This document shows, piece after piece, positions 1 to 20,000 of a stretch of 20,000 nt of DNA (position 1 is its first letter; each line of letters starts with the position of its first letter). Source of the stretch: an uncultured virus (IMG/VR IMGVR_UViG_3300047094_001085) (taxonomy: Duplodnaviria > Heunggongvirae > Uroviricota > Caudoviricetes); the IMG/VR virus record IMGVR_UViG_3300047094_001085. The stretch is one strand, 5' to 3'. Made by a program: the position numbers and the translations under genes. The notes beneath the pieces are model-generated. The model was not told where the DNA came from, made no database searches, and was given only the letters and a program-made list of their open reading frames with translations.

Positions 1-641
1 TGGGAAACCTTTTCTTTGTGAGATGGAAATAAATTAATTATTTCTTCACTTTCTAATGGTTCTGTAAATAAGTTAAATATAACTTCGTTAGGGTGTTTTT
101 CACCATAAAAACTTATATCATCCACTAAATCATTTAAATTATACCATTGAAATGATGAATTTTTATTAATCATATGAATATTATTATTGTTCAATAAATC
201 ATATAATATGTTTTTTTTGATATTTTTACTGAATAAAGCTGGTAATCTAAAAATTTTTACATTCTCGTAGTTTAAATGTTTAATCACCATTTTTTCAAAA
301 AGATATCTATTTGAACCATAAGAAAAATCTTTAAATATTGGTTCAAAATCTTCATTAACACCTACAGGTGAATTCCCATATACATCAATCGTAGATATTA
401 CGTACACGTTTTTATATTTAACACGCCCAATTAATTTAATAATATCGACGACAGTTTCAATATCTGTTTTAGTATCTTTGTTAATTAACCATTTCGTTGA
501 CGGTAAACAAGATAAATACAATTCACATCCATCAGGTGGTGAATAGTCATTAATTGACTTTGAATTATACTCAAAATCAAAATTTATACTTTCTTTTAAA
601 GTTTGTCCTACTAAACCGGTGTTTCCTATTAATATTTTCAT
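1..641 (-). CDS. Extended SDR / NAD-dependent epimerase-dehydratase family protein (3' end runs off the window; absent from the ORF track)
   Basis: Manual translation from ATG at 641, which overlaps the upstream TGA as ATGA: MKILIGNTGLVGQTLKES...VISTIDVY...YGSNRYLFE...IFRLPALF...NSSFQWYNL. Shows a GxxGxxG Rossmann motif, an IST-DVY strand, a YxxxR active-site variant and the RLP motif. No stop before position 1. Confidence 0.85.
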   Translation of the reverse strand, partial: MKILIGNTGLVGQTLKESINFDFEYNSKSINDYSPPDGCELYLSCLPSTKWLINKDTKTDIETVVDIIKLIGRVKYKNVYVISTIDVYGNSPVGVNEDFEPIFKDFSYGSNRYLFEKMVIKHLNYENVKIFRLPALFSKNIKKNILYDLLNNNNIHMINKNSSFQWYNLNDLVDDISFYGEKHPNEVIFNLFTEPLESEEIINLFPSHKEKVS

Positions 642-1684
642 CGAACTAAGTTTAATTTTATATCTTTTGATTGAACTAACATATAATCTTTTAATTGAAA
701 TTGTAATAATCTTTCAGGGTACGAGCAATAGTAATAATACAACGAATCTACGTGACCTTCATGACCTTTTAAATTATAGTTCCCTTGTTCATGAAAAATA
801 TTTTTAGGAACTTTTTTAAATTGTTTTAAATTTTCATTAAAAAATGAATCATTTAGTTTATCATAATTATTATATAATTCACAATATTGTTTCATTGAAG
901 ATTTACTTCCGTAAGCAAATAAATCACATATAACATTTGTGTGTTGAAAAATATGAACTATCTTTCTATTGTGAGTATAATACAAACTGTCACACGCCCA
1001 ACAAGATGTTCCATAGTCCATGTGAGTATGTTGATTGTCGTGATTAGGTGTGAAAATAATATCGTGAGTTTTTATATCTGAGATTGTTTTATCCGTTAAA
1101 TTAAATGCTGTCATATCACAATCAAATCTAATTTTTAAAACCACATCATATTCGATATTATTTTCTATCGAATATTCTTCCATTAATTTATACGATTTAT
1201 TAATGGAATATAATTGTGATTTAATAAAAATTTCCGGAGAAGAAAAATTAAAATAGTTATCTCTAATTTCTTGGGATTCAATCCATTCTTTATTATTTTC
1301 TATCTCATATTTTTTCACATTAGTAAATTTGTTTATTTCAGAGATTACTGATGTTGGAACAGATAAATCGTTTAATAATGTTTCATTACCTTTTAATCCA
1401 ATATTGTCCCATGTGTGTATAAACACATGATAATTTTCATTATTACAAAATTGGGTAATACCTTTTAACACTGAATTTTTTCTAATATGCCCACTTAATA
1501 AAATTGCAATTTTTAAATTACCACTATTAGTATTTTTTGCAGGTAGATTCAAATACTCACTACAATTTAATATTTCATTTTCTAAATGTTCTACAGTTTT
1601 ATTACCATGTACAATTAATTCATAGTTTGTAAAATTTCTATTTAAATACTTGTTAAATAGATATGATAGTTCTTCATTACTCAT
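638..1684 (-). CDS. Putative glycosyltransferase-like protein (KIAxxxSGxxR...YDxVxxxRFD family) with a short N-terminal helical extension
   Basis: Motifs KIAILLSGHIR, VFIHTWD, SQLYSI, YDVVLKIRFD, DLFAYGS and PERLL match an uncharacterised family common in polysaccharide loci and large viruses. The function is inferred. Confidence 0.55.
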   Translation of the reverse strand: MSNEELSYLFNKYLNRNFTNYELIVHGNKTVEHLENEILNCSEYLNLPAKNTNSGNLKIAILLSGHIRKNSVLKGITQFCNNENYHVFIHTWDNIGLKGNETLLNDLSVPTSVISEINKFTNVKKYEIENNKEWIESQEIRDNYFNFSSPEIFIKSQLYSINKSYKLMEEYSIENNIEYDVVLKIRFDCDMTAFNLTDKTISDIKTHDIIFTPNHDNQHTHMDYGTSCWACDSLYYTHNRKIVHIFQHTNVICDLFAYGSKSSMKQYCELYNNYDKLNDSFFNENLKQFKKVPKNIFHEQGNYNLKGHEGHVDSLYYYYCSYPERLLQFQLKDYMLVQSKDIKLNLVR

Positions 1685-2663
1685 TCTTAATTATGTTTAA
1701 AATATAATCTTCAATAATATAAATTCCTTGTATTTTTCCGGTGAAACAGGAAATAATATTATTTGTTTGTTTTATTACCGGATATCGACTATCCGATTCG
1801 TCATTTACTTTACTTTTTATTGATAAAAAATATGAATCATATTTAAAATACTCATTAAATTCAGGCATGAATATTTTAACTCTATCTTCAAATTCTGTTA
1901 TTTTATTTAATATAAACTCATTAGTTATTATTGTTTTATAATCATCAATCTCTTCAATAGTTGAAAATCTTTTTAGTGGTGTTAATTTAACATCTGTCAA
2001 TGTGAATTTATTTTCCTTATAAGGATAAATAGAAAATAGTTCACCATCAACAAATGTAACAGAATCAAAGTCAGTTGATTTGATTTTATCGTAAATTAAT
2101 GTGATTGTTAATTCATAAAAAAAATCATTATCTATCAGACCCATAAAATTATTTGTAGCGTCAATAACTAAATCAGAATTTTTTGATAGTTCTACTAACT
2201 TTACTTTATCAACTGTTTCATACTTAATTAAGCCGTTTAGTTCTTTTTCAAAATGAGTTTTAATTTTTTGAAAATTAATATGTTTTTCGTTTGTCAACAA
2301 ACAACCTTCGGTGTTTTTAAAATTATGTTCAATTAAATCTGAAGGATACTCTTCAAAAATTTTTAAATAAGTATTCAAATCCATCAAGGATAATTTTTTA
2401 GGGACACAGTAAAAGTTTTTATCTATGTCTGTAACACAAAAACCATAATCATGTATAAACCTATAAAAGGTTGTTTTACATAAGTTTCTGGTTTCAAAGT
2501 TTCTGGCGTAATGATATCCGTAATGTAATCTATTTTGATTATTATATGAAGTTCCAATAAATATTTCGTCAGTTTTTTCGTATAATGTTACGTTATGGTT
2601 TTTTTTTAATACATTTGCTAAATGACACCCAACCCATCCTGTTCCAATAATTGATATATTCAT
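1677..2663 (-). CDS. FAD-dependent oxidoreductase (DAO-like)
   Basis: N-terminal IIGTGWVG (GxGxxG), VTLYEK, GTSYNNQNRLHYGYHY, D-x-VIDAT and C-terminal FTGKI. Confidence 0.85.
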   Translation of the reverse strand: MNISIIGTGWVGCHLANVLKKNHNVTLYEKTDEIFIGTSYNNQNRLHYGYHYARNFETRNLCKTTFYRFIHDYGFCVTDIDKNFYCVPKKLSLMDLNTYLKIFEEYPSDLIEHNFKNTEGCLLTNEKHINFQKIKTHFEKELNGLIKYETVDKVKLVELSKNSDLVIDATNNFMGLIDNDFFYELTITLIYDKIKSTDFDSVTFVDGELFSIYPYKENKFTLTDVKLTPLKRFSTIEEIDDYKTIITNEFILNKITEFEDRVKIFMPEFNEYFKYDSYFLSIKSKVNDESDSRYPVIKQTNNIISCFTGKIQGIYIIEDYILNIIKNE

Positions 2664-2664
2664 T

Positions 2665-3225
2665 TTAATTATGTACGGTTAATATTTTGTTTATTTTTTT
2701 TGTTCTAATGTTAGGGTATTTCATACATTCTTCAACAAATATTCCGTCACAGTATTGTGATTCGGGTTGATTGATTCCCACTTTTTTTGCTATATCAGTT
2801 CTTAAAACAAATGAGCCCCAATCAATTCTACATTTAATTGGTATAGAATCCAATACATTATAATTAAAGTGATTATGAATACAATTGAACATAACCATAT
2901 CACAATCAATTAAATTAGACATTAATTCACTCACAGTATTAGGTGTGTAGTAATCTTGAATAGATGTTTGTATTACAAATTCAGTGTCTATTAACTCTAA
3001 AGTTTTTTTTCTATTGTAGTGACCCCAAAAAGATGTAGGGGTTTCATTATTAATAATTGTTATTTTATCGGAATTAAAGAATTTAACACATTCTTCAATA
3101 TATTCATTTTTTTCATCACAATGAATTATACATTTCCAATTAGAGTTTTTTTGTAACATTAGGGAACTTATAAATTGATAAGAATCTACAGTTTCTTTGT
3201 ATGCGGTGGCTAAAAAAGTTATCAT
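2665..3225 (-). CDS. Small GT-A fold (GT2-like) glycosyltransferase
   Basis: Q-x-x-x-NWKCIIHCD, WGHYNR, QTSIQDYY at the DxD-equivalent position, IDWGSFVLR, CDGIFVE and C-terminal LTVHN. Confidence 0.7.
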   Translation of the reverse strand: MITFLATAYKETVDSYQFISSLMLQKNSNWKCIIHCDEKNEYIEECVKFFNSDKITIINNETPTSFWGHYNRKKTLELIDTEFVIQTSIQDYYTPNTVSELMSNLIDCDMVMFNCIHNHFNYNVLDSIPIKCRIDWGSFVLRTDIAKKVGINQPESQYCDGIFVEECMKYPNIRTKKINKILTVHN

Positions 3226-4733
3226 TATTTTACTATCTTAATATGTGTTTTTAATTTATCATAATTATTAATAACAAATGGTTTTAATATGTTGTTATAA
3301 TCTTCAAATTGTTTTTTAGATTTTTCTTCATCATTATTTCTTGTTTGACTTTCATAATGATATGAAACTAAATTACTATTACAGTAATTATCTAAACCTA
3401 ACATCAAACATTTCAAATTTAATTCAACATCTTCAAAACAAGTTGAGTATTTTTCATTGAAATATTCACATTTTATAAATACATCCTTTTTAATTATTAG
3501 TAACGCAGCTGTTGAACCAATAATCTTTCTATTAGTATTTGAAAAATTATAGTAACTATTTAGTCCGTGGTGTGAGATTAATAAATTTTGTTTACTGTCT
3601 AATAAACATATTACACCGTCGTGTTGTATTGTTTTATCTTCAAAATGTAATCTACATCCAACCGTGCCAACTTTAGGTGTTGTTTTAAAAATATTTAACA
3701 TTCCATAAATTACATTATTCAATAATTTGATATCGTTATTACAGAATAATAAAAATTCGTATTTGTCTGTCACGTGATTTTTAACAACATCATTATTAAT
3801 CTTTGCAAAATTATAATAATCATATTCAATTAACTTTATATTATTATAATCTTTTATATAACTTTTTAATGTTTCTTTTTCATCATCCGTTGAACCGGTG
3901 TCGGCAATAAAAATGTCAAATAATTCAGGGTTACAATGATTGTAAAATGAATCGACACATTCTTTCAACATTTCAATATTCCCTTTGGTTGGAATGATAA
4001 CGGCTACTTTACCAATATTTTTAATTGGTTTTTCTTTTATTTCCGGAATGTAAATTTTTTCAGGTTTTAAATCTAATGGTAAAACGTGTTTCCATTTCTC
4101 CACAAACTTTTCTTTTGTTTCGTAAAATTCTTGGTTAGGTTTACCAACCGATTGATGTGTAATTTCAAAAGATGATGTAACACCAATCTTAACTCCGTCT
4201 AAATAATTTGGTAAACAAAATAAATGGTCATAAAAGTGGAATCTTCCAATACTTTCATCAAACGTATGTTTTATTTTTGTCTTATTAAATGATAGGAATA
4301 AACCGTCTATAGAAACTACGGGAATAATTACTGGTAATTTTGGTGAATACTTACTTAACCACTTATCTTTATCAGGTTGATGGTAAACTTGTCCCACCAT
4401 TGTTTGTTGCATTTTTTCCCAAAACACACCTGATTCAGGAAAGTATGATGTACCGGCTTTTCCAATAATACCATATTCCGGATTATCGGAGTAATCTTTT
4501 AAAAGTTTTTTACCCCACCCATTTTCTAATTTAATATCATTATGGCAACAAACAACAATATCAAAATTTGAATGAGAAATACCTTTGTTGTAAATCTCAC
4601 TCAAACTAAATTCGTTATTGTTTTTATATTCTAAAATTTGAACATCTTTTAGACCAACAGTTTGTAACAAATGTTGTTTAAATTTGTTATTAAATTGTTC
4701 ATCTTTATGTGTTGAATATATTACTGTTATCAT
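3225..4733 (-). CDS. Two-domain glycosyltransferase: N-terminal StrF-like GT-A domain plus C-terminal GT2 domain
   Basis: Domain 1: SLSEIYNKG, VCCHNDI, GIIGKAG, SIDGLFL, FHFYD. Domain 2: VAVIIPTK, IADTGSTD, YNFAKINN, LLFCNNDI, VGTVGCRL, IQHDGV, TAALLII, FEDVELNLK, HYESQTR. Confidence 0.9.
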   Translation of the reverse strand: MITVIYSTHKDEQFNNKFKQHLLQTVGLKDVQILEYKNNNEFSLSEIYNKGISHSNFDIVVCCHNDIKLENGWGKKLLKDYSDNPEYGIIGKAGTSYFPESGVFWEKMQQTMVGQVYHQPDKDKWLSKYSPKLPVIIPVVSIDGLFLSFNKTKIKHTFDESIGRFHFYDHLFCLPNYLDGVKIGVTSSFEITHQSVGKPNQEFYETKEKFVEKWKHVLPLDLKPEKIYIPEIKEKPIKNIGKVAVIIPTKGNIEMLKECVDSFYNHCNPELFDIFIADTGSTDDEKETLKSYIKDYNNIKLIEYDYYNFAKINNDVVKNHVTDKYEFLLFCNNDIKLLNNVIYGMLNIFKTTPKVGTVGCRLHFEDKTIQHDGVICLLDSKQNLLISHHGLNSYYNFSNTNRKIIGSTAALLIIKKDVFIKCEYFNEKYSTCFEDVELNLKCLMLGLDNYCNSNLVSYHYESQTRNNDEEKSKKQFEDYNNILKPFVINNYDKLKTHIKIVK

Positions 4734-5329
4734 ACCAATCCTGTCGAACCAAATCCGTTACTACCTCTTTCTTTATCAATTACTTCTTCTCTTTGGTCCA
4801 AATGAACCCAACCCCCATTTACAACGGGACACAATACCGCTTGACCAAATTTCATACCTTTATGGATAGTTACGGGGTGATTGTTGGTGTTAAAAATAAT
4901 TCCCTTAACTTCTCCGGTATAACCATTATCAACAGTCCCCGGTGAGTTTAAAACCATAAGTCCTTGATTGATTGCCAATCCACTTTTAGTTCTAACTTGT
5001 ATTTCATAACCATCTTTAATATCGAATGATAATCCACTTGGAACTAATGCTCTACCAAAAGGTTCAATTGTAACCTCTTCTACGGAGTGTAAGTCAAAAC
5101 CTGAATCACTATCGTAATTATATTTTGGAGTTACTGCGTCAGGATGAATTTTTACAAACCCTAATGGTAGTTTAGTTCTTGAATTCATCATATCATCCTC
5201 AAGTTGTTTTAAGTCAAGTCCAAATTCTCCCATTATTTCTTCATAGGATAGTTCATCCAAATCAATGTTGGCCATTCGTTTTAATTCTTCGGCCTTATTT
5301 TTTAAGAAATCTAAATCTTCGTTTAACAT
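4730..5329 (-). CDS. dut: Trimeric dUTPase with an acidic N-terminal extension of about 50 aa
   Basis: All five motifs are present: SGFDL, RTKSGL, GTVDNGYTGE, KFGQAV and RGSNGFGSTG. Confidence 0.96.
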   Translation of the reverse strand: MLNEDLDFLKNKAEELKRMANIDLDELSYEEIMGEFGLDLKQLEDDMMNSRTKLPLGFVKIHPDAVTPKYNYDSDSGFDLHSVEEVTIEPFGRALVPSGLSFDIKDGYEIQVRTKSGLAINQGLMVLNSPGTVDNGYTGEVKGIIFNTNNHPVTIHKGMKFGQAVLCPVVNGGWVHLDQREEVIDKERGSNGFGSTGLV

Positions 5330-6039
5330 TATTCTAAATTTTTTAATTTTTTTATTAAATCAATCAATACTAACACATCACGTTCACAGTATGCAGATAT
5401 CTCTTCTAACATATTTTTATTCCAATATGCGTCGTGTACTTTATCTCCGGTAACATCACCTTCTTTTGGGGAAGGGACTTCCATTGAAGTACACATTAAA
5501 TCCAATGAACCAATTGCGGTATATGCTCCGTATTGCCAAATTTCTCTGGTATCAATAGCTTTTACTTCCCACGGTTTTGTATCATAAGATGGTAGAATCG
5601 ATGGGGGTAATAATCCGTTGATTATCATTCTTTTTGCTGTCATTGGAATATCAAAGTTTTTTAAATTGTGACCACATAGGAAAAAATCTAATTTTCCGCA
5701 ACGTTCTAATAAATTTTGACATTCTTTTAATAATACTTTCTCATCATCACCTGAAAACGTTTGTTTTTTAATCTCACCATTTTCCATTACAAAGGCAACA
5801 CTCATACAAACAATTTTTGCGAATTCAGGAACTAATGCGGTTCTTGTTGCAAATACGTGATTTTTTTGGTTTACTTCAATTTCCTTATCTTCAGGAAAAC
5901 GTTTTAAGAACCAATCGTAATATTTGTCAAATTGTTTCGATAATTCAGGTCTTTTTTCTAAACAAGTGTCGTAATCTTTTTCAATTCCAACTGTTTCAAT
6001 ATCTAAAAATAATATTTTGGTTAATGGTATTTTAATCAT
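5329..6039 (-). CDS. Stand-alone DnaQ/DEDDy 3'-5' exonuclease (PolB-exonuclease related)
   Basis: ExoI LFLDIETV, ExoII GHNLKNFD and ExoIII YCERDV. KPWEV..DT..W and PSPK...G..V segments are as in Bacteroidota homologues I recall. Confidence 0.9.
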   Translation of the reverse strand: MIKIPLTKILFLDIETVGIEKDYDTCLEKRPELSKQFDKYYDWFLKRFPEDKEIEVNQKNHVFATRTALVPEFAKIVCMSVAFVMENGEIKKQTFSGDDEKVLLKECQNLLERCGKLDFFLCGHNLKNFDIPMTAKRMIINGLLPPSILPSYDTKPWEVKAIDTREIWQYGAYTAIGSLDLMCTSMEVPSPKEGDVTGDKVHDAYWNKNMLEEISAYCERDVLVLIDLIKKLKNLE

Positions 6040-6487
6040 TTGATTCTAAATTTTTTATAATGTCCGGATTTTGTTTGATTGTTTGTTTTGTAATTAAATC
6101 TTTAATTTTGGTTGTTGACCAATTGTGAGACCTTGTTGTGTAAATTACTTTGATTGGTAAATGGTCACCGGTAAATCTTTTACCGATGTAATCATCCCCC
6201 AATATTCTAATATCAGGTTTGTAAAATTCCATTAATTGAATCAAATCTTCTTCAGTTTGATAAGTTACTACCTCATCAATGTATTTGATTGACATTAATG
6301 TTTTATATCGTTCATATAATGGAATTACAGGTTTATATTTTGTAAATCTAGTCTCTGAAGGGTCTCTCTGTAAAAAAACCATAAAATAGTCACAATGACG
6401 TTTAGCCTCTTCAAAGGTATAGATATAACCCGGGTGAAGTAAGTCAAAATTACCTGCGGTAAAACCAATTGTTTTTTTTGTATTCAT
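6032..6487 (-). CDS. Cytidylyltransferase-like nucleotidyltransferase (TagD / glycerol-3-phosphate cytidylyltransferase family)
   Basis: GNFDLLHPGY (HxGH variant), ERY..L.SIKYIDEV, LGDDY and RSHNWSTTKIK (RTxxxSTT motif). Confidence 0.88.
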   Translation of the reverse strand: MNTKKTIGFTAGNFDLLHPGYIYTFEEAKRHCDYFMVFLQRDPSETRFTKYKPVIPLYERYKTLMSIKYIDEVVTYQTEEDLIQLMEFYKPDIRILGDDYIGKRFTGDHLPIKVIYTTRSHNWSTTKIKDLITKQTIKQNPDIIKNLESND

Positions 6488-8415: not shown

Positions 8416-8416
8416 A

Positions 8417-9390: not shown

Positions 9391-9391
9391 A

Positions 9392-13037: not shown

Positions 13038-13463
13038 ATGTCACAGTCAATAATAATTAGAAGTATAAATTACGATGGGGAGATTGCCAATATAATCTTT
13101 ACACCTGACGTTGATAATGTAGTAATTAATTTGGGACAACAAACATTGCCGTTTTTGTTTAGACCTTATTTATTAACACCACCAAGAGATGTTTATGGGG
13201 TGTATACAATTATAGTTATGTTTAATGGTGTCGAATGTCCTAACATTTTAAATGTTCCAAGACCAACCCCAACTCCAACACCAACACCAACTAAAACAAG
13301 TACTCCAACACCAACAGTTACACCAACGGTTACACCAACACCAACATTTGACCCATGTAAAGTTCCGACACCAACTCCAACACCAACAAAAACATCAACA
13401 CCAACACCGACTCGAACACCCACACCAACACCGAGTTGTACCAACCCTTGTGGTTGTTCATAA
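13038..13463 (+). CDS. Small PT-repeat protein (beta-rich N-domain, (PT)n stalk, Cys-containing C-terminus)
   Basis: 141 aa with two PT tracts split by FDPCKV, ending SCTNPCGCS and followed by a terminator. Confidence 0.8.
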
Positions 13464-13470
13464 TAATATT

Positions 13471-13500
13471 AAATCCTCCAATAAAATGGGGGATTTTTTT
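13471..13500 (+). terminator. Rho-independent terminator
   Basis: AAATCCTCCA-ATAAAA-TGGGGGATTT followed by a T run, 7 nt after the stop at 13463. Confidence 0.8.
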
Positions 13501-13558: not shown

Positions 13559-13578
13559 AAGTATTTATAGGATAAATA
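13559..13578 (+). promoter_or_regulatory. AAGTATTTATA motif upstream of the giant ORF (candidate late promoter)
   Basis: The same 11-mer occurs on the minus strand at 10708-10698. Here it is followed by an inverted ATAAATA (13572-13578). Confidence 0.5.
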
Positions 13579-13593: not shown

Positions 13594-16500
13594 ATGGCAA
13601 ATATACCTATTTCACAGTTACCTCAAGCGTTTTCGGCATACCCGGAATCATTGTTAGTTATAGTAAACTATGACCTGGTACCTACAGGACAAACAAATTA
13701 CATATATTATTCAGCATTAACCGCACAATTTAGTTCGGGTACATCGGGTACTTCCGGTACATCAGGTACAAGTGGAAAAAGTTTCATTTGGAAAGGTACT
13801 TGGTCGCCTTCAATTAATTATGATGATGGAGACGTTGTTTATTATAATGGTAGTTCATATCTTGCAACAACAACAATACCTTCAGGTGGAGGTGCTCCGG
13901 ACACTAATTTTAATTGGGGTTTGATTGCTCAAGCAGGAACAAGTGGAACTTCGGGTTCAAGTGGAATAGATGGTACGTCAGGTACAAGTGGAATAGATGG
14001 TACATCAGGAACTAGTGGAACAGATGGTACATCAGGTTCAAGTGGTTCATCAGGAATAAGTGGTTCATCAGGTACATCCGGTTCATCAGGTACATCCGGT
14101 TCATCAGGTATTGATGGGACTTCAGGGACTAGCGGAACAGGTGGGTCTTCAGGAACATCAGGTTCTAGCGGAACATCAGGTTTAAGTGGGACTAGCGGTT
14201 CTTCAGGGACTAGTGGTTCTTCAGGAACTAGTGGTTCTTCAGGTATAAATGGAACATCCGGTACGAGTGGTTCATCGGGTATAAACGGTACTTCAGGTTC
14301 AAGTGGTTCAAGTGGAACAAATGGTACTTCAGGTTCTTCAGGGGCAAGTGGTTCTTCAGGAACGTCAGGGTCTTCAGGAACATCAGGTTCTTCAGGTATA
14401 GACGGAACAAGTGGTTCGTCAGGAACTTCGGGTTCGTCAGGAACAAGTGGTTCGTCAGGAACTTCAGGGTCTAGTGGTATAGATGGAACTAGTGGAACAT
14501 CAGGTTCTTCAGGGACTTCGGGTATAGACGGAACAAGTGGTTCATCAGGAACATCAGGGTCTTCAGGTACAAGCGGAACCAGTGGTTCGTCAGGAACATC
14601 AGGGTCTTCGGGTATAGACGGAACAAGTGGTTCATCAGGAACATCAGGGTCTTCAGGTACAAGCGGAACCAGTGGTTCGTCAGGGACATCAGGTTCATCA
14701 GGAACATCAGGTTCAAGCGGTGTAGATGGAACAAGTGGTTCATCAGGAACATCGGGTTCATCAGGAACTAGTGGTGTTGATGGTACATCAGGTTCTTCAG
14801 GGACATCAGGAACATCAGGTTCTTCGGGAACATCAGGTTCGAGTGGGACAAGTGGTTCTTCGGGGGTTAATGGAACTTCTGGGACTTCAGGTTCTTCAGG
14901 AACGTCAGGGTCATCAGGAACTTCAGGTTTAAGCGGTGTTGATGGAACAAGTGGTTCTTCAGGGACATCAGGTTCAAGTGGAACATCAGGGTCTAGCGGT
15001 ATTGATGGCACTTCAGGCTCAAGCGGTATAGATGGAACTTCAGGAACGTCAGGTTCTTCGGGTTCAAGTGGAACAAGTGGTTCTTCAGGAACATCAGGTT
15101 CATCAGGAACTTCAGGAACGTCAGGTTCTTCGGGTTCAAGTGGAATAGATGGTACTTCAGGTTCAAGTGGAACAAGCGGTTCTTCGGGTACTTCAGGTTC
15201 AAGTGGAACTTCAGGTACAAGCGGCTCAAGTGGAACTTCAGGGTCTTCAGGAACTTCAGGTTCAAGTGGAACTTCAGGGTCTTCAGGAACTAGCGGAATA
15301 GATGGAACTTCAGGTTCATCAGGAACTAGTGGAACTTCGGGTTCTTCAGGAACATCAGGTTCAAGCGGAATAGATGGTACTTCGGGTTCAAGTGGAACAA
15401 GCGGTTCTTCGGGAACATCAGGTTCAAGCGGTGTAGATGGAACTTCAGGTTCTTCAGGAACATCAGGTTCAAGTGGAACATCAGGTTCAAGTGGAACAAG
15501 TGGTTCAAGTGGAACAAGTGGTTCTTCAGGAACTAGCGGTATAGATGGAACAAGTGGTTCATCAGGGACTTCAGGTTCTAGCGGAACAAGTGGTTCATCA
15601 GGAACTTCAGGCTCTTCAGGAACTTCAGGTACAAGCGGCTCAAGTGGAACTTCAGGTTCAAGTGGTTCATCAGGAACTTCTGGTTCAAGCGGTGTAGATG
15701 GGACTTCAGGTTCTTCAGGGACAAGCGGTTCTTCAGGGACTTCAGGGTCTTCAGGAACAAGTGGTACATCAGGGAGTAGTGGTGAAAGTGGGATTTCCGC
15801 AGGACAAGTATACTACTTCAATGAATCACAAAATTCAGATGTTTCAGGATATAAAGTTTTAGCGACAGACCCATCAGGTGCTGCACAACAAACGGTTACA
15901 ACAAATTTAACAGGAAGTCAACAAAATGTGATGGTTTCCGATTACATAACACCACAATTAGGTTTTGCCGTAATTCCGGGTGGTGTACAAAGATTTCATT
16001 TACATTACTTAAAACCGGCGAGTAATGACGATATTGATGCTTATGTTGAAATACAATTAGCTAATTCAACGGGTACCGCTATAGGACCAACAATAACATC
16101 TAATGTTGCGTTAATTGGTTGGGTTAGTGCCGTAATACCGGTCGAAGTTAATGTCGATATTGTATTACCAACAACAACTATAGACCCAACAAACAGAATG
16201 ATTGTTAGGTTATATCTTAGTAATAATGATTCAACAGCGCATTCAGTTGTTTATTATACTGAAGGTAATTCATATTACTCATTTGTATTAACATCAGTTG
16301 GTGCGATTGCGGGCACAAGTGGTACTTCAGGGTCTTCAGGAACTTCAGGTTCATCAGGAACTTCAGGTACAAGCGGCTCAAGTGGAACATCAGGTTCAAG
16401 TGGTATTGATGGAACAAGTGGTTCGTCAGGAACATCAGGGTCAAGTGGAACTTCAGGTTCTTCAGGTATAGATGGAACAAGTGGTTCGTCAGGAACTTCA

Positions 16501-19500
16501 GGTTCAAGCGGGACAAGTGGTTCTTCAGGTATAGATGGAACATCGGGCTCAAGTGGAACAAGTGGTTCTTCAGGTATAGATGGTACAAGTGGTTCTTCAG
16601 GAACATCAGGTTTAAGCGGTGTTGACGGAACAAGTGGTACATCAGGTTCTTCAGGAACATCAGGTTCTTCAGGTATAGATGGCACATCAGGTACTTCAGG
16701 TTCATCAGGAACTAGTGGTATAGATGGTACATCAGGTTCAAGTGGAACAAGTGGTTCTTCAGGTTCTAGTGGTACATCAGGTTCTAGTGGTACATCAGGT
16801 TCTAGTGGTACATCAGGTACAAGTGGTTCTTCAGGAACATCAGGTTCAAGTGGAACAAGTGGTTCTTCAGGAACTTCAGGTTCTTCAGGTATTGACGGAA
16901 CTAGTGGAACAAGTGGTTCATCAGGAACAAGTGGTTCGTCAGGAACTTCAGGTTCAAGCGGAATAGACGGCACATCAGGTTCAAGTGGTTCATCAGGAAC
17001 ATCAGGTTCAAGTGGAATAGATGGGACATCAGGAACATCAGGTTCTTCAGGAACTTCGGGTTCAAGTGGGACTTCAGGTTCAAGTGGGACATCAGGTTCA
17101 AGTGGTGTAGATGGAACTTCAGGTTCAAGTGGGACTAGTGGTTCTTCAGGAACGTCAGGTACAAGTGGTTCTTCAGGAACGTCAGGCTCTTCAGGAACTT
17201 CGGGGACTTCAGGTTCTTCGGGGACTTCAGGTTCTTCGGGAACAAGCGGGTCGTCAGGGACTTCAGGTTCAAGTGGTATAGATGGTACGTCAGGAACAAG
17301 TGGGTCTTCAGGTTCTTCGGGCACAAGTGGTTCTTCAGGAACTTCAGGTTCTTCAGGTATTGACGGAACTAGTGGTACAAGTGGCTCTTCAGGAACATCA
17401 GGTTCAAGTGGTTCATCAGGAACATCAGGTTCAAGTGGAACTAGTGGTTCATCAGGAACATCAGGTACAAGTGGTTCTTCAGGTACAAGTGGTTCTTCAG
17501 GAACATCAGGAACTAGTGGTTCTTCGGGAACATCAGGTTCTTCAGGAACATCAGGAACTAGTGGTTCTTCGGGAACATCAGGTTCTTCAGGTACAAGTGG
17601 TACATCAGGCTCAAGTGGAACATCAGGTTCTTCAGGGATTAATGGAACTTCGGGGACTTCAGGTTCTTCAGGAACATCGGGTTCAAGTGGTACGTCAGGT
17701 TCAAGTGGTACTGATGGTGGTAATCTAACAGCGTCTAACTATGTTGCTAAAGGTGTTAAAGGTGGTACAGCTCAAACTATAACAAATGGGTCTGACCAAG
17801 TCGTAACATTTGTTGATGAATTTGACCCTCAAGGGTGGATTACATCTAATAAGTTTCAACCAACAATTGCGGGATATTATAATATTCAAGTTGCTGTATG
17901 GTGGAATCCTGCGTCAACAACAACAGGTCAAAACAATATTCAGATTAGAAAAAATGGTAGTACACAAGTCGCAATTCAACAATCACCACTTGTGACTACT
18001 GAAGGGTATGGTCAAGAAATTGACATTATAGTGTATTTTAACGGTACAACAGATTATGTTGAAGTCACCGCTTATACATCTAACCCAACATCTCAAAATA
18101 TAAACGGAGCTTCTTCAGGTACTTGGATTACAGGGTCATTAATTGTTGGTGGTGGAACAAGTGGAACAAGTGGTTCTTCAGGAACATCAGGGTCTAGTGG
18201 TACATCAGGAACATCAGGTTCAAGTGGAACTTCAGGTTCTTCAGGGGTAAATGGTACTTCAGGAACATCAGGTTCAAGTGGTTCGTCAGGAACTTCAGGT
18301 TCAAGTGGAACAAGTGGTTCTTCAGGTAATAGTGGAACTTCAGGAACATCAGGGTCTAGTGGGACAAGTGGTTCATCAGGAACTTCAGGAACATCAGGTT
18401 CTAGCGGTACAAGTGGTTCATCAGGTACATCAGGAACATCAGGTTCTAGCGGTACAAGTGGTTCATCAGGTACATCAGGAACATCAGGTTCAAGTGGAAC
18501 AAGTGGTTCATCAGGAACTTCAGGAACATCAGGTTCAAGTGGAACAAGTGGTTCATCAGGTAATAGTGGAACTTCGGGAACTTCAGGTTCAAGTGGAACA
18601 AGTGGTTCTTCAGGTAATAGTGGAACTTCGGGAACTTCAGGTTCAAGTGGAACAAGTGGTTCTTCAGGTAATAGTGGAACTTCGGGAACTTCAGGTTCAA
18701 GTGGAACAAGTGGTTCATCAGGGTCTAGTGGAACAAGTGGTTCATCAGGTTCAAGTGGAACAAGTGGTTCATCAGGTTCTAGCGGTACAAGTGGTTCATC
18801 AGGTAATAGTGGAACTTCAGGGACATCCGGTTCATCAGGGACAAGTGGTTCTTCAGGTAATAGTGGAACGTCAGGTACTTCAGGTTCTAGCGGTACAAGT
18901 GGTTCATCAGGTAATAGTGGAACGTCAGGTACTTCAGGTTCTAGCGGTACAAGTGGTTCATCAGGTAATAGTGGAACTTCAGGGACATCCGGTTCATCAG
19001 GGACAAGTGGTTCATCAGGTTCAAGTGGAACTAGCGGTTCTTCAGGTAATAGCGGAACTTCAGGAACTTCAGGTTCAAGTGGTACAAGCGGTTCATCAGG
19101 AACTTCAGGTTCTAGCGGTACAAGTGGTTCGTCAGGTAATAGTGGAACGTCAGGTACTTCAGGTTCTAGCGGAACAAGTGGTTCATCAGGTTCTAGCGGT
19201 ACAAGTGGTTCATCAGGGTCTAGTGGAACTAGCGGTTCTTCAGGTAATAGCGGAACTTCAGGAACTTCAGGTTCTTCAGGTAATAGTGGAACTTCAGGAA
19301 CATCAGGGTCTAGTGGAACAAGTGGTTCATCAGGTTCAAGTGGAACTAGCGGTTCTTCAGGTAATAGCGGAACTTCAGGAACTTCAGGTTCAAGTGGAAC
19401 AAGTGGTTCTTCAGGAACATCAGGTTCAAGCGGTACTAGCGGTTCATCAGGTAATAGTGGAACATCGGGAACTAGCGGTTCTTCAGGTAATAGTGGAACT

Positions 19501-20000
19501 TCGGGAACAAGTGGTTCATCAGGAACATCAGGTTCGTCAGGTAATAGTGGAACTTCAGGAACTTCAGGTTCGTCAGGTAATAGTGGAACTTCGGGAACAA
19601 GTGGTTCATCAGGAACATCAGGTTCTTCAGGTAATAGTGGGACTTCAGGAACATCAGGTTCGTCAGGTAATAGTGGAACTTCGGGAACAAGTGGTTCATC
19701 AGGAACATCAGGTTCTTCAGGTACTAGTGGGACTTCAGGAACTTCAGGTTCAAGTGGAACAAGTGGTTCATCAGGAACATCAGGTTCGTCAGGTAATAGT
19801 GGAACTTCGGGAACAAGTGGTTCATCAGGAACATCAGGTTCTTCAGGTAATAGTGGGACTTCAGGAACATCAGGTTCGTCAGGTAATAGTGGAACTTCGG
19901 GAACAAGTGGTTCATCAGGAACATCAGGTTCTTCAGGTAATAGTGGGACTTCAGGAACTTCAGGTTCAAGTGGAACAAGTGGTTCATCAGGAACATCAGG
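13594..20000 (+). CDS. Giant (>2135 aa, 3'-truncated) Pro-free Gly-X-Y repeat fibre protein with CBM5/12-like, unassigned beta and C1q-like domains
   Basis: Manual frame +1 translation from ATG 13594: MANIPISQLPQAF...GTSGTSGTSGTSGKSFIWKGTWSPSINYDDGDVVYYNGSSYLA...W, then (G-T/S-S)n blocks. No in-frame stop seen up to 20000. Missing from the ORF track, presumably because it has no stop in the window. Confidence 0.93.
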   Translation, partial: MANIPISQLPQAFSAYPESLLVIVNYDLVPTGQTNYIYYSALTAQFSSGTSGTSGTSGTSGKSFIWKGTWSPSINYDDGDVVYYNGSSYLATTTIPSGGGAPDTNFNWGLIAQAGTSGTSGSSGIDGTSGTSGIDGTSGTSGTDGTSGSSGSSGISGSSGTSGSSGTSGSSGIDGTSGTSGTGGSSGTSGSSGTSGLSGTSGSSGTSGSSGTSGSSGINGTSGTSGSSGINGTSGSSGSSGTNGTSGSSGASGSSGTSGSSGTSGSSGIDGTSGSSGTSGSSGTSGSSGTSGSSGIDGTSGTSGSSGTSGIDGTSGSSGTSGSSGTSGTSGSSGTSGSSGIDGTSGSSGTSGSSGTSGTSGSSGTSGSSGTSGSSGVDGTSGSSGTSGSSGTSGVDGTSGSSGTSGTSGSSGTSGSSGTSGSSGVNGTSGTSGSSGTSGSSGTSGLSGVDGTSGSSGTSGSSGTSGSSGIDGTSGSSGIDGTSGTSGSSGSSGTSGSSGTSGSSGTSGTSGSSGSSGIDGTSGSSGTSGSSGTSGSSGTSGTSGSSGTSGSSGTSGSSGTSGSSGTSGIDGTSGSSGTSGTSGSSGTSGSSGIDGTSGSSGTSGSSGTSGSSGVDGTSGSSGTSGSSGTSGSSGTSGSSGTSGSSGTSGIDGTSGSSGTSGSSGTSGSSGTSGSSGTSGTSGSSGTSGSSGSSGTSGSSGVDGTSGSSGTSGSSGTSGSSGTSGTSGSSGESGISAGQVYYFNESQNSDVSGYKVLATDPSGAAQQTVTTNLTGSQQNVMVSDYITPQLGFAVIPGGVQRFHLHYLKPASNDDIDAYVEIQLANSTGTAIGPTITSNVALIGWVSAVIPVEVNVDIVLPTTTIDPTNRMIVRLYLSNNDSTAHSVVYYTEGNSYYSFVLTSVGAIAGTSGTSGSSGTSGSSGTSGTSGSSGTSGSSGIDGTSGSSGTSGSSGTSGSSGIDGTSGSSGTSGSSGTSGSSGIDGTSGSSGTSGSSGIDGTSGSSGTSGLSGVDGTSGTSGSSGTSGSSGIDGTSGTSGSSGTSGIDGTSGSSGTSGSSGSSGTSGSSGTSGSSGTSGTSGSSGTSGSSGTSGSSGTSGSSGIDGTSGTSGSSGTSGSSGTSGSSGIDGTSGSSGSSGTSGSSGIDGTSGTSGSSGTSGSSGTSGSSGTSGSSGVDGTSGSSGTSGSSGTSGTSGSSGTSGSSGTSGTSGSSGTSGSSGTSGSSGTSGSSGIDGTSGTSGSSGSSGTSGSSGTSGSSGIDGTSGTSGSSGTSGSSGSSGTSGSSGTSGSSGTSGTSGSSGTSGSSGTSGTSGSSGTSGSSGTSGTSGSSGTSGSSGTSGTSGSSGTSGSSGINGTSGTSGSSGTSGSSGTSGSSGTDGGNLTASNYVAKGVKGGTAQTITNGSDQVVTFVDEFDPQGWITSNKFQPTIAGYYNIQVAVWWNPASTTTGQNNIQIRKNGSTQVAIQQSPLVTTEGYGQEIDIIVYFNGTTDYVEVTAYTSNPTSQNINGASSGTWITGSLIVGGGTSGTSGSSGTSGSSGTSGTSGSSGTSGSSGVNGTSGTSGSSGSSGTSGSSGTSGSSGNSGTSGTSGSSGTSGSSGTSGTSGSSGTSGSSGTSGTSGSSGTSGSSGTSGTSGSSGTSGSSGTSGTSGSSGTSGSSGNSGTSGTSGSSGTSGSSGNSGTSGTSGSSGTSGSSGNSGTSGTSGSSGTSGSSGSSGTSGSSGSSGTSGSSGSSGTSGSSGNSGTSGTSGSSGTSGSSGNSGTSGTSGSSGTSGSSGNSGTSGTSGSSGTSGSSGNSGTSGTSGSSGTSGSSGSSGTSGSSGNSGTSGTSGSSGTSGSSGTSGSSGTSGSSGNSGTSGTSGSSGTSGSSGSSGTSGSSGSSGTSGSSGNSGTSGTSGSSGNSGTSGTSGSSGTSGSSGSSGTSGSSGNSGTSGTSGSSGTSGSSGTSGSSGTSGSSGNSGTSGTSGSSGNSGTSGTSGSSGTSGSSGNSGTSGTSGSSGNSGTSGTSGSSGTSGSSGNSGTSGTSGSSGNSGTSGTSGSSGTSGSSGTSGTSGTSGSSGTSGSSGTSGSSGNSGTSGTSGSSGTSGSSGNSGTSGTSGSSGNSGTSGTSGSSGTSGSSGNSGTSGTSGSSGTSGSSGTS
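13783..13926 (+). other. CBM5/12 (ChiC-BD)-like small aromatic module within the giant ORF
   Basis: WKGTWSPSINYDDGDVVYYNGSSYLA...P.....W fits the W....Y..GD.V.Y.G..Y.A...P...W pattern. Confidence 0.75.
13936..15798 (+). repeat. Gly-X-Y block 1 (about 207 triplets; GTS/GSS with periodic GID/GVD/GIN/GLS)
   Basis: 1863 nt = 207 x 9. Gly phase is identical at both ends and no interruption was seen by eye. Confidence 0.92.
15799..16311 (+). other. 171-aa non-repetitive beta-rich domain between blocks 1 and 2
   Basis: AGQVYYFNESQ...YKVLATDP...IPGGVQRFHLHY...YVEIQL...DPTNRMIVRLYL...VVYYTEGNSYYSFVLTS. Alternating hydrophobic strands; no family assigned. Confidence 0.7.
16312..17715 (+). repeat. Gly-X-Y block 2 (about 156 triplets)
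   Basis: 1404 nt = 156 x 9, same vocabulary as block 1 (GTS, GSS, GID, GVD). Confidence 0.92.
17725..18153 (+). other. C1q/TNF-like jelly-roll (trimerisation/adhesin) domain, about 143 aa
   Basis: VTF.DEFD....SNKFQPTIAGYYNIQVAV...IRKNG...IVYFNGTTDYVEV.AY...TWITGSLI fits the gC1q pattern F..P..G.Y.F...L.KNG...L..GD.V...F.G.L. Confidence 0.75.
18154..20000 (+). repeat. Gly-X-Y block 3 (>=205 triplets; GTS/GSS/GNS), runs off the window
   Basis: Gly phase is kept from 18154 to 19999. GNS replaces GID/GVD. Confidence 0.92.

Follow-up and report, generated by a model that had tools for sequence, protein, structure and literature searches.

Does a phage that carries a set of glycosyltransferase (GT) genes near genes for Ser/Thr-rich surface proteins use the enzymes on those proteins? 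This question is raised by a 20,000-nucleotide stretch (hereafter, the window) for which an initial annotation had proposed a phage-built glycan coat or glyco-stabilised fibre. The window comes from an uncultured T4-like lake jumbo phage of roughly 300 kb, whose T4-like identity rests on gp23, gp20, gp21 and TerL genes in the window's own record, which is 47.7 kb long and whose right end falls within a collagen-like gene. A complete and collinear relative with 78-96% amino acid identity, G003, and near-complete relatives (records at least 90% complete, n = 4) have been used for comparison. The window is best explained as the junction of two modules, each inherited and transcribed on its own (Table 1). 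The minus-strand module would start at a sigma-70-like promoter behind a terminator and comprise a soluble GT4, an optional cytidylyltransferase, an exonuclease, a dUTPase and then a swappable glycan cassette; the plus-strand module would be the start of a fibre module composed of a Cys-rich PT-linker protein, a small PT-rich protein and a giant collagen-like fibre devoid of Pro. Glycosylation of the virion in this lineage is plausible from the sequences. Our main reading, tentative and with a probability of about 0.37, is that the phage O-glycosylates its own Ser/Thr/Pro-rich fibres by soluble enzymes and a PF11397 starter enzyme, with the two modules inherited and transcribed separately.

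Table 1. Features of the window, ordered by position.
Feature	Position	Strand	Basis
Rossmann-fold SDR/epimerase-like protein, C-terminal 213 of 254 aa; gene passes left edge	3..641	-	PF01370
348-aa protein, function unassigned	638..1684	-	phrog_13607 (unknown function)
328-aa oxidoreductase-like protein, N-terminal FAD/NAD-binding Rossmann motif	1677..2663	-	PF01266 3.3e-7, PF13450 7.4e-5
p186, 186-aa short GT2-like (GT-A) glycosyltransferase	2665..3225	-	Atlas score, WcaA match
GT502, 502-aa two-domain GT-A glycosyltransferase, semi-core head of swappable cassette	3225..4733	-	PF13712 + PF00535
dUTPase, conserved right flank of variable cassette	4730..5329	-	PF00692 5e-21
3'-5' exonuclease (DnaQ/PolB-exo-like)	5329..6039	-	PF10108 8e-12, phrog_25228 2.6e-35
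Cytidylyl/adenylyl-transferase-like enzyme, 151 aa, RfaE domain II or TagD type	6032..6487	-	PF01467
GT406, 406-aa soluble GT4-type (GT-B) glycosyltransferase, lineage core	6490..7710	-	phrog_7162, profile matches
Sigma-70-like promoter TTGATA-17-TATACT, before GT406	7731..7759	-	sequence pattern
Terminator-like hairpin and T-run, 11 pairs; closes upstream five-gene unit	7775..7800	-	
Five conserved genes (197, 226, 97, 156 and 276 aa), divergent from fibre genes	7822..10685	-	
Divergent TATTTAT(A) pair, candidate structural-gene promoter element	10698..10725	minus 10705-10698, plus 10719-10725	
763-aa Cys-rich protein, first gene of fibre module	10736..13027	+	composition
141-aa Pro/Thr-rich protein	13038..13463	+	S+T 37, Pro 28
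Terminator-like hairpin, 10 pairs, after PT-rich gene	13471..13496	+	
TATTTATA motif, 25 nt before collagen-like gene	13562..13569	+	like arrangement in G003
Collagen-like fibre protein, >2135 aa, open at window end	13594..19998	+	PF01391 2e-226

What was first observed holds for the most part. The initial annotation had counted four GT-like genes with five domains; three genes with four domains (GT406, GT502 and p186) stand, while the fourth candidate, the 348-aa gene, has no GT match. GT406 is matched in 76 of 80 loci with 67-98% identity and hits phrog_7162 ("glycosyltransferase") at an E-value of 5e-43. Its family profile matches PglA (2.7e-9), TarM (1.8e-6), MshA (2.8e-5) and also BshA, all confined to the C-terminal sugar-nucleotide part of GT4/GT-B enzymes, and its PDB relatives are 6kih, MshA (3c4q), BshA (3mbo) and PimA (2gej). 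GT502, with PF13712 at 2.6e-22 and PF00535 at 2.4e-16 in Pfam, is present in the cassettes of 13 of 14 sampled relatives. For p186, an Atlas score of 0.99 was obtained to viral clusters in which PF00535 is found in 99-100% of members, besides a weak match to WcaA (E 0.0034). The nearest named relatives of these GTs are lipid-linked glycan, teichoic acid, small-molecule or EPS enzymes, and the GT4 and GT2 families are not diagnostic of the acceptor. No hydrophobic 19-aa window occurs in any GT or sugar enzyme, GT406 included.

The other predicted sugar enzymes fared variously. The nucleotidyltransferase was recovered (PF01467, 2e-13); it scores alike for RfaE domain II and TagD (TIGR02199 8e-19, TIGR01518 1.2e-18), both under the equivalog cut-offs, and is optional in the lineage (21 of 80 loci). 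For the annotated FAD oxidoreductase, the weak N-terminal matches to PF01266 and PF13450 cover residues 3-65 only, and the protein has no sequence relative in PDB. The annotated SDR, complete in G001, is Rossmann-fold and epimerase-like, but its N-terminal match to PF01370 (Epimerase; E 0.0025) is weak, below the Pfam cut-off, and a sequence relative was again absent from PDB. In the 348-aa protein numerous His, Cys and Asp positions are invariant, and it has 221 homologues, nearly all labelled hypothetical; no Pfam or NCBIfam match was found, nor any PDB match of its family profile at E<=10. Its alignment by hhalign to a GT25 alignment gave a probability of 0.06, and its count as a GT is not supported. 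As for the description of all these genes as one operon, the sugar genes do lie on the minus strand, interleaved with the dUTPase (75 of 80 loci, tblastn) and the exonuclease (also 75 of 80), and the unit extends past the left edge of the window through more sugar genes (GT47-like and sugar-isomerase-like) up to PhoH.

Even relatives that are 98% identical have exchanged the cassette that follows the dUTPase, which is hypervariable, with 40 configurations found. This phage has GT502, then the GT2-like gene, the two Rossmann-fold enzymes and the 348-aa protein, and one 98%-identical relative has GT92 and DegT genes in their place.

On the plus strand, the three consecutive Ser/Thr-rich genes were recovered with 1,300 Ser and Thr in total, against the thousand or so first estimated, and the distance of about 3 kb is 3,026 bases from the GT406 start to the start of the 763-aa gene. 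The 763-aa protein (375 relatives in IMG/VR) has 36 Cys, 141 Ser and Thr, a PT linker (residues 359-368) and, at its C-terminus, a tail of (T6-I-P) x4. Among 44 distinct homologues, 41 retain the PT tract; the poly-T tail varies, and in some relatives the poly-T run joins an extra domain. Both kinds of tract may simply be linkers. The 141-aa gene is matched in 66 of 80 loci. The collagen-like ORF contains 1122 Ser and Thr and 569 Pro-free G-X-Y triplets of G-(T/S)-S type, arranged in three runs (207, 157 and 205) with two globular inserts; X is T in 281 and S in 221 triplets, Y is S in 528, and the 1,138 X/Y positions hold no Pro and 34 acidic residues. Its N-terminus has a CBM5/12-like domain (PF02839, 3.5e-4) and matches tail-fibre PHROGs, and its G003 homologue reaches 2,914 aa or more.

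The difference in promoter types between the GT operon and the fibre genes, already noted in the initial annotation, is conserved in relatives. The sigma-70-like pattern is kept upstream of GT406 in 18 of 29 distinct relatives, with TATTTAT there in only 2 of 29, and in G003 just 2 of 354 ORFs are preceded by it; the hairpin and T-run before GT406 are visible for most relatives' upstream sequences. TATTTAT, on the other hand, precedes the 763-aa gene in 33 of 33 distinct relatives and shows a strand bias in G003 (94 versus 42 of 354 ORFs). Between the two modules, the five-gene unit, matched in 77-78 of 80 loci and in no Pfam or PHROG family, has the TATTTATA motif 13 nt ahead of its first start codon. 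From these signals the GT operon, which also holds nucleotide-metabolism genes, forms a transcription unit of its own, of early type, and its expression need not coincide with that of the fibres.

The co-occurrence of the GT set with the GTS/PT-repeat genes, suggested as a check of the initial annotation, was not borne out. GT406 was found in 26 of 26 distinct relatives, with a nearby collagen-like ORF in only 8 of the 26, and three of the four near-complete relatives retain the transferases and have no collagen-like gene anywhere; for the variable cassette genes, no significant association with collagen-like genes was detected (p = 0.09 to 0.28). The specific link between these GTs and this fibre fails this test, and the initial interpretation is partly supported: the general idea of a glycosylated fibre gains support from another gene of the relatives, a PF11397 transferase lying beside Ser/Thr-rich genes.

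The PF11397 transferase (392 relatives in IMG/VR; E 9.4e-72 in G003) is present in all four near-complete relatives, at the far end of the fibre module, and in none of 14 control bacteria. No such gene lies within the window or its record, which stops inside the collagen gene. Of 53 distinct contexts, 47 have an immediate upstream same-strand neighbour of the PF11397 gene whose Ser plus Thr fraction is 0.22 or higher, and in 44 this neighbour carries an [STP] tract of 7 or more residues; the background in the G003 proteome is 11 and 13 of 279, respectively. TATTTAT, the motif seen at the fibre genes, is found upstream of the PF11397 gene in 30 of 55 distinct regions (reverse-complement control, 1 of 55), and the gene is followed by variable GT, methyltransferase and carbamoyltransferase genes. 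We take PF11397 to be CAZy family GT60, whose enzymes start mucin-type O-glycans. PMC8724618 and PMC6939170 describe GT60 enzymes that initiate such glycans on Ser/Thr-rich domains in protists. A PF11397 (GT60-type) polypeptide GlcNAc-transferase would start the chains on the fibres, while the soluble enzymes would synthesise activated sugars and extend the O-glycans in the cytoplasm, on fibre proteins prior to assembly; glycan diversity would come from cassette swapping. Gene content, the solubility of the enzymes, synteny, the exchange of cassettes, the promoter classes and the position of PF11397 next to Ser/Thr-rich genes in relatives are shown by the sequences; we infer the acceptor, each sugar and the presence of a PF11397 gene in this particular phage.

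A strong rival, although on the unlikely side, is that early soluble transferases act at the inner membrane face on lipid-linked intermediates of the host's LPS, capsule or EPS, with carrier and export supplied by the host. The surface of the infected cell would be altered, for example excluding superinfecting phages or stopping re-adsorption of progeny, and the Ser/Thr fibres would be unrelated neighbours. The conserved terminator and sigma-70-like promoter suggest early expression, the nearest named families (HpsN, PgaC, WcaA, RfaE/TagD, PglA and TarM) belong to EPS, LPS and teichoic acid, JGI annotates homologues as "glycosyltransferase involved in cell wall biosynthesis", and GT406 is retained whichever fibre type a relative has. 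Peripheral GT4 and GT2 enzymes do not require a membrane segment. Fibre-linked GT islands of pelagimyophages have also been read as host O-chain modification (PMC7029224). However, the Pfam scan of G003 (353 of 354 ORFs, each at least 70 aa) detected no priming or polyprenyl-phosphate transferase, flippase, polymerase, O-antigen or other ligase, Gtr-type gene or integrase family, and since no integrase was seen, classical lysogenic seroconversion is inapplicable. The PF11397 transferase of the lineage, placed after Ser/Thr-rich genes and absent from the control bacteria, also speaks against this reading, the characterised members of the family, taken as GT60, acting on polypeptides (PMC8724618, PMC6939170). 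Far less probable, and disfavoured by us, is DNA glycosylation, in which GT406, perhaps with other transferases, would act on hydroxylated pyrimidines as in T4 or RB69/DLP3. It would explain why GT406 sits next to the dUTPase and exonuclease in an early-type operon, it fits the strict conservation of this core gene, and GT406 shares its PDB relatives with the RB69 and DLP3 DNA arabinosyltransferases, whose top structure matches include 6kih, 3c4q, 3mbo and 2gej (PMC13326640, Table 1). Yet the sole thymidylate-synthase homologue of G003 retains Asp169 and Asn177 (...QRSVDTFLGLPFN...); dCMP hydroxymethylases carry N177D. D169N is the criterion for 5-hydroxy-dCMP synthase and N177 sets substrate specificity, as given in section 28 of PMC13326640. 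Furthermore, no C5-methyltransferase, TET/JBP, MazG-type dCTPase or T4 alpha/beta-GT family was found in the 353 ORFs, which encode three amino-methyltransferases instead, and about 12 GT-like genes and the hypervariable cassettes would be left unexplained.

It is also unlikely, though less so than a DNA target, that there is no functional link at all, the transferases serving another intracellular target, the fibres being glycan-free and the proximity reflecting a shared plastic genome region. PT and poly-T tracts would then be flexible linkers, as the poly-T run between domains in relatives suggests, and the Pro-free helix would owe its stability to globular trimerising inserts, to its great length and to the cold of the lake water. 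The separate promoters and independent inheritance of the modules are consistent with this, as are the plastic regions described for T4-like phages, where fibres lie among unrelated genes (PMC7029224). The phage collagen-like protein EPclA is stable without glycans (PMC3368898), but its named stabilisers, Pro in the X position and charged residues, are absent from the repeats here. Also against this reading are the recurrent pairing of PF11397 and Ser/Thr-rich genes and the layout of G003, whose fibre module has glycan genes on both sides.

We regard the window as the junction of two modules, namely an early-type operon of glycosyltransferase (GT) and nucleotide-metabolism genes with a swappable glycan cassette, and the first genes of a fibre module. 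The best single explanation is that the phage decorates its own Ser/Thr-rich fibres, to which we give a probability of about 0.37; this is because the enzymes are all soluble, a complete relative is without export or carrier genes, and a core polypeptide-type transferase of the relatives lies behind Ser/Thr-rich genes. The GT operon of the window would presumably take its own part in this decoration.

The IMG/VR virus record containing the window (G001; 47,659 bp, linear, 16% complete by the CheckV estimate) extends beyond the left edge of the window by 27.7 kb, and its right end falls within the collagen-like gene. T4-type core genes (Gp23 major capsid protein, Portal_T4, the prohead protease Peptidase_S77, and the large terminase, Terminase_6N) were found in the left extension, and the best relatives of the capsid protein in cultured and other phages, i.e., an uncultured 484-kb phage, Microcystis phage Mel-JY01, and Flavobacterium phage immuto, are just 40-46% identical to it. 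No match to phages was obtained by megablast with window positions 1-13600 or by tblastn with the 763-aa protein. In IMG/VR, this protein has 375 relatives on contigs of up to 322 kb, and four records of relatives rated at least 91% complete have 272-322 kb, giving a range of about 270-320 kb for the lineage. Because of these relatives, the near-complete records, and the T4-type genes, the window can be assigned to an abundant lineage of T4-like lake phages of about 300 kb. At least 14 lake-water DNA runs contain at least 96% of the sampled words of the window. The "moraphage" jumbo lineage was ruled out as the identity of this lineage, since it is outside the T4 group in its authors' tree as excerpted from PMC12619734. 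The major capsid protein of G001 has 638 aa, with the Gp23 family match mainly at residues 372-623, and its tblastn matches in other phages come in two pieces that account for no more than 50-63% of its length, which suggests that it has a large additional or inserted domain. A complete relative (G003) of 318 kb is collinear with the window at an amino-acid identity of 78-96%.

Positions of the features discussed, in the window and in records of the phage and its relatives (L-numbers denote loci or segments of the records)
Feature	Record	Position	Strand	Remarks
Two-domain GT-A transferase (GT502)	window	3225-4733	minus	502 aa; PF13712 and PF00535 domains
dUTPase	window	4730-5329	minus	unbroken
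GT4-type transferase (GT406)	window	6490-7710	minus	406 aa
TTGATA-17-TATACT site	window	7759-7731		
Terminator-like strong hairpin	window	7800-7775		
TATTTAT(A) site	window	10698-10725		
763-aa protein	window	10736-13027	plus	36 Cys, PT linker, four T6 runs at end
PT-coding stretch with high RNA-contig depth	window	12993-13456		
141-aa protein	window	13038-13463	plus	Pro+Thr = 46%
TATTTAT(A) site	window	13562-13569		
Collagen-like ORF	window	13594-19998	plus	open over 2,135 codons to the window end; N-terminal CBM5/12-like domain, two globular inserts
Major capsid protein	G001, L003	17996-19912	minus	
Split dUTPase	G003, L085	15375-17268		
Thymidylate synthase homologue	G003, L091	7216-8502		P0391
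Genes for the four-domain FkbM/GT32-like/GT4/GT9 protein, an FkbM methyltransferase, a sulfotransferase, and an APS kinase, next to the 3' end of the collagen-like gene	G003, L100	3633-9941		

Three consecutive genes with hydroxyl-rich tracts had been reported in the initial annotation; they are real and contain 1,300 Ser and Thr residues in total. The collagen-like ORF has 569 G-X-Y triplets of uninterrupted periodicity in runs of 207, 157, and 205 (PF01391, E 2e-226), with Thr or Ser at X in 502 and Ser at Y in 528 of the triplets. As to helix stabilisers, i.e., imino acids and charged pairs, the 1,138 X and Y positions hold no Pro, 34 acidic residues, and no basic residue. A PHROGs search with the two globular inserts found nothing, and the homologue in G003 has at least 2,914 aa in total, divided over contig ends. 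The gene is an assembly break point: G001 stops within it, both contig ends of G003 fall in it, and loci L005-L015 run to contig ends at the same place. Since assemblies break within the gene, its true length and copy structure are uncertain in short-read data. Among distinct homologues of the 763-aa protein, 41 of 44 keep the PT tract, and the poly-T tail is variable. Homologues in L011, L026, L036-L038, and L051-L053 have an extra C-terminal domain beyond the poly-T run, with the end "...GHAYISF.DM.RLI.E.GEICLA...", and therefore the poly-T stretch can act as an inter-domain linker.

Every gene between positions 1 and 10685 is on the minus strand. Four of these had been proposed as GT-like, and three are supported. 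GT406, whose family has homologues in the thousands, matches phrog_7162, and the family profile aligns to GT4/GT-B enzymes (PglA, TarM, MshA, BshA) over their C-terminal, donor-binding portion; its single-sequence PDB search gave no match. GT502 has the two domains listed in the table, and its single-sequence PDB search returned 5hea alone, at a non-significant E of 0.11. The 186-aa protein is GT2-like by its Atlas neighbours and a weak WcaA match. For the fourth, the 348-aa protein, GT identity is unsupported: its profile found nothing in PDB, hhalign against GT25 gave a probability of 0.06, and the sole lead in the Atlas is DUF7796 with a score of 0.87. The SDR match is present but under the Pfam cut-off, the FAD oxidoreductase match is limited to the first 65 residues, and neither protein has a significant PDB relative. 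The 151-aa nucleotidyltransferase is solid at superfamily level and scores equally as RfaE domain II and TagD. The middle of this supposed sugar operon is occupied by a dUTPase and a 3'-5' exonuclease, and to the left of the window the same-strand genes encode GT47-like, xylose-isomerase-like TIM-barrel, and PhoH proteins, followed by a weak GT1-like match and a GT2 gene. No anthrose or rhamnose pathway was found in the window. The dUTPase of G003, unlike the copy in the window, is split into 226-aa and 101-aa halves around an inserted 294-aa ORF without a Pfam match, which may be a mobile insertion, e.g., a homing element or intein-like sequence.

The terminator-like hairpin and the TTGATA-17-TATACT site lie directly before GT406, in the only long gap. 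The generic sigma-70 consensus is not enriched in the window (89 matches vs 87.7 expected), and the TTGATA/TATACT-type pattern is found upstream of GT406 orthologues in 18 of 29 distinct regions, most of the others having near variants behind the hairpin. Among the 354 ORFs of G003, this sigma-70-like pattern precedes only two, namely GT406 and the GT47-like gene. Within 60 nt upstream, TATTTAT(A) was found strand-specifically for 94 of the 354 ORFs vs 42 for its reverse complement, including scaffold, protease, portal, sheath, baseplate, and fibre genes. All 33 distinct relatives compared have it ahead of the 763-aa gene, and only 2 of 29 have it ahead of GT406; the earlier caveat that the GT and fibre units have different promoter types was thus right and holds lineage-wide. 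TATTTAT(A) sits 11-31 nt before many structural genes and is a candidate promoter element of the lineage, unlike the T4 late consensus. TATAAATA was ruled out as a T4-type late promoter (3 matches vs 2.67 expected), and the copy ahead of the 763-aa gene is the TATTTATA motif in reverse complement, a motif that serves the divergent five-gene unit. Contigs of RNA libraries from four runs map to core genes of both modules; most are 90-95% alike and hence stem from relatives. As the libraries may contain DNA, the contigs are evidence neither of transcription nor of its timing, and the thin coverage of the left part of the window carries no meaning. At the PT-coding stretch listed in the table, the summed RNA-contig depth is up to 16,877, with many joints and loose ends into other PT-coding sequences, which is likely to be low-complexity cross-matching from other organisms and not expression.

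By tblastn, the proteins of the window were compared with 80 loci of relatives. From the five unknown genes to the dUTPase, with GT406 and the exonuclease between them, the gene block is conserved in 75-78 of the 80 loci, the misses being loci with short flanks. The cytidylyltransferase (the 151-aa protein), FAD-like, 186-aa GT, and 348-aa genes were found in 21, 7, 6, and 2 loci, respectively. Left of the dUTPase, 40 distinct gene configurations were found. The PF13712 two-domain GT is present in 13 of 14 sampled configurations, the 14th being cut off by the locus edge, and its cassette partners vary (GT92, GT10, GT11, GT25, GT2, GT4, GT7C, GT34, several methyltransferases, DegT, and a HAD plus nucleotidyltransferase gene). 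In one relative, whose 763-aa protein is 98% identical, GT92 and DegT genes replace the 186-aa GT, FAD-like, and 348-aa genes.

Co-occurrence of the GT set with the fibre genes had been proposed in the initial annotation as a check on their connection. For 26 distinct alleles with full flanks, and with a collagen-like ORF defined as at least 50 triplets within 8-10 kb, GT406 was present in all 26 and a collagen-like ORF was nearby in eight. Such an ORF accompanied 3 of 5 alleles with the cytidylyltransferase vs 5 of 21 without (p = 0.28), and 2 of 2 with the FAD-like and 186-aa genes vs 6 of 24 without (p = 0.086). Three of the four whole records at least 91% complete have no PF01391 match, and GT406 and a GT502-like gene are kept in all four. 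Since GT406 is kept without a collagen-like gene, the test fails to tie this GT set to a collagen-type fibre.

Of the 354 ORFs in G003 with 70 aa or more, 353 were scanned with Pfam (E<=1e-5). There are about 12 GT-like genes and one ABC_membrane_3 protein in G003. Beyond the far end of its collagen gene, i.e., to the right of the window by collinearity, there are a 1,447-aa FkbM methyltransferase/GT32-like/GT4/GT9 protein, an FkbM methyltransferase, a sulfotransferase, and an APS kinase, as well as a 642-aa PT-rich protein, a 415-aa PF11397 protein (E 9.4e-72), and a GT25 protein. The FkbM, sulfotransferase, and APS-kinase block hints at methylated or sulfated glycans. A similar sulfotransferase and APS-kinase pair is also encoded in the relatives L016 and L017, where no collagen-like gene is nearby.

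PF11397 is a family that we take to be CAZy GT60. Each of the 4 near-complete records has its gene, at a distance of 12-25 kb on the downstream side of the 763-aa gene, and none of 14 control bacteria has it; neither the window nor its 47.7-kb record, which is a fragment, has a match. The PF11397 protein has 392 relatives in IMG/VR. From 74 loci with at least 1 kb upstream, 53 distinct immediate upstream neighbours of 160 to 3,315 aa were obtained, of which 47 have S+T of at least 0.22 and 44 an [STP] tract of at least 7 residues (11 and 13, respectively, of 279 ORFs in the G003 background); these contexts are related by descent, and the counts are not independent events. The genes directly after it vary (GT25, GT34, GT10, GT11, PLOD-type GT, methyltransferase, carbamoyltransferase, DegT, and GNAT). 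TATTTAT is present upstream in 30 of 55 distinct contexts vs 1 of 55 in the control, and the sigma-70-like pattern never is. Since a collagen-like ORF was found in the flanks of just 4 of 80 loci, the usual partners are other Ser/Thr-rich fibres. A PDB search with the PF11397 protein gave spurious T7 RNA polymerase matches only, and no paper describing a GT60 or PF11397 enzyme from a phage turned up in a literature search. Full-length homologues with 46-49% identity are present in the cultured jumbo phages XacN1, Xoo-sp13, CM1, and RAS14 (the last two infect Stenotrophomonas), in none of which a GT406 homologue was found at E<=1e-8. The homologue in XacN1 is followed by a carbamoyltransferase and further ORFs, with a GT9 gene and a 3,313-aa ORF nearby; unlike the gene in the relatives of the window, it is beside replication genes and not directly behind a Ser/Thr-rich fibre gene.

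The enzymes might instead remodel the host surface, which the early promoter and the enzyme families fit; seroconversion or O-antigen modification, however, would involve membrane components and a temperate lifestyle, and no flippase, polymerase, ligase, polyprenyl-phosphate transferase, Gtr-type family, or integrase was seen in the 353 ORFs of G003. No sugar enzyme of the window has a hydrophobic 19-residue window, and we consider host-surface remodelling possible but, on the whole, doubtful. It is unlikely that the operon and the fibre genes have no functional link. The negative co-occurrence and the promoter-class split are facts that any model must explain.

Glycosylation of DNA is the least probable of these alternatives, and we think it very unlikely. 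In thymidylate-synthase homologues that make a hydroxylated pyrimidine, N177D is presumably an alternative signature. The sole thymidylate-synthase homologue of G003 (PF00303) keeps both Asp169 and Asn177, as tested in this relative and not in the window phage, and no C5 DNA methyltransferase, TET/JBP, MazG-type dCTPase, or T4 alpha/beta-GT was seen in the 353 ORFs. D169N is the mark of 5-hydroxy-dCMP synthases in the excerpted text of PMC13326640, and by the criteria of that paper the homologue looks like an ordinary dTMP synthase. GT406, which is GT4-type, shares PDB neighbours with the DNA arabinosyltransferases of RB69 and DLP3 (PMC13326640). Its fold is silent on the acceptor. DNA glycosylation is therefore weakened by the ordinary appearance of the synthase and kept among the alternatives by the shared neighbours. 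The synthase homologue has 428 aa with extra sequence within the fold (Pfam match at residues 6-343 for 234 model positions), and the canonical active-site residues are kept.

The fibre-decoration reading can be compared with several known systems. BclA, an exosporium glycoprotein of Bacillus, has GPT repeats with Pro in X and Thr in Y, and the cuticle collagen of Riftia and the collagens of mimivirus are also glycosylated. "Sweet is stable" by Bann in 2000 reportedly dealt with Thr-glycosylated collagen. The window shares with BclA and Thr-glycosylated collagen a hydroxyl-rich collagen-like G-X-Y filament of a microbial surface, and O-glycans have there been shown or proposed to stabilise the helix; unlike BclA, its repeats have Thr/Ser in X, mostly Ser in Y, and no Pro. 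In EPclA, a collagen-like tail fibre of an E. coli prophage, about half of the X positions are Pro and charged residues are numerous; the protein carries no glycans and has a melting temperature of 42 C. In the excerpt cited, its stability is put down to Pro in X and charged residues, and Thr glycosylation is named as an alternative mechanism (PMC3368898). As in EPclA, a collagen domain of a phage fibre lies between globular or trimerising domains (PMC3368898), whereas the protein of the window is without either stabiliser.

In the pelagimyophages the "host recognition cluster" is hypervariable, and the cyanomyophages have "LPS" clusters; for these fibre-linked GT islands, the authors favour host O-chain modification in the passages cited (PMC7029224). 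The window resembles them (PMC7029224) in that GT and sugar-nucleotide genes, rfaE-like included, are mixed with or adjacent to the tail-fibre genes of a T4-like aquatic myovirus, some of which have collagen repeats, and in that gene content is hypervariable between relatives. In the loci compared here, the flanks are mostly conserved. It differs in that its lineage is larger and has the core PF11397 transferase, and in that the cassette lies between dUTPase and PhoH, behind its own early-type promoter and outside the fibre block. Virion O-glycans of mycobacteriophages have been measured at the C-terminal ends of subunits of the capsid and tail tube (Freeman et al. 2023, as cited in PMC12619734), and there too the proposal is that transferases of the phage modify its own structural proteins (PMC12619734). 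Unlike this, the system of the window is predicted from genes, and fibre proteins bearing PT, poly-T, and G-T/S-S tracts would be its acceptors. GT60 polypeptide alpha-GlcNAc-transferases of protists (Dictyostelium, T. cruzi) start mucin-type O-glycans on Ser/Thr-rich domains, and Gnt1 acts on Skp1 hydroxyproline, as excerpted from PMC8724618 and PMC6939170. Similarly, the full-length PF11397 gene directly behind Ser/Thr/Pro-rich genes in the relatives is a predicted initiating enzyme beside a mucin-like acceptor; unlike the protist enzymes, its activity, donor, and acceptor are only predicted, and the gene is outside the window and G001. As it stands, the window is one more member of a known pattern, and what is new here is the negative co-occurrence result, the conserved promoter-class split, the thymidylate-synthase check, and the composition contrast with EPclA.

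Fibre decoration may be extended to a fuller scheme, which as a whole we think unlikely. The giant Pro-free collagen fibre would fold to a triple helix only if its Ser/Thr residues are O-glycosylated; a GT60-type polypeptide GlcNAc-transferase would start the chains, and the early swappable cassettes, that of the window included, would extend them, giving a self-made, rapidly diversifying mucin- or collagen-like glycocalyx that sets the adsorption range and shields the virion from defences or grazers. If fibre decoration itself, our main reading, is true, abundant lake phages would run a eukaryote-like mucin-type pathway in the bacterial cytoplasm, their collagen-like fibres would be a natural test of glycan-dependent Pro-free triple helices, and the "LPS genes" of aquatic T4-like phages would be re-read as virion decoration and not host remodelling.

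Elsewhere in G003, we found Hsp70, DnaJ, ClpB-like, ClpP, SmpB, class II tRNA-synthetase-like, and Tad6-like proteins, a SprB-repeat structural protein, and three DNA amino-methyltransferases. The genome also has 22 tRNAs, including three tRNA-Pro(UGG), tRNA-Thr(UGU), tRNA-Ser(UGA), and tRNA-Gly(UCC) (L088, L089), which read CCA, ACA, TCA, and GGA. In the PT-rich and collagen-like genes of the window (13038-19998), CCA, ACA, and TCA are the commonest codons for Pro, Thr, and Ser, and GGA is the second Gly codon (208), behind GGT (328).
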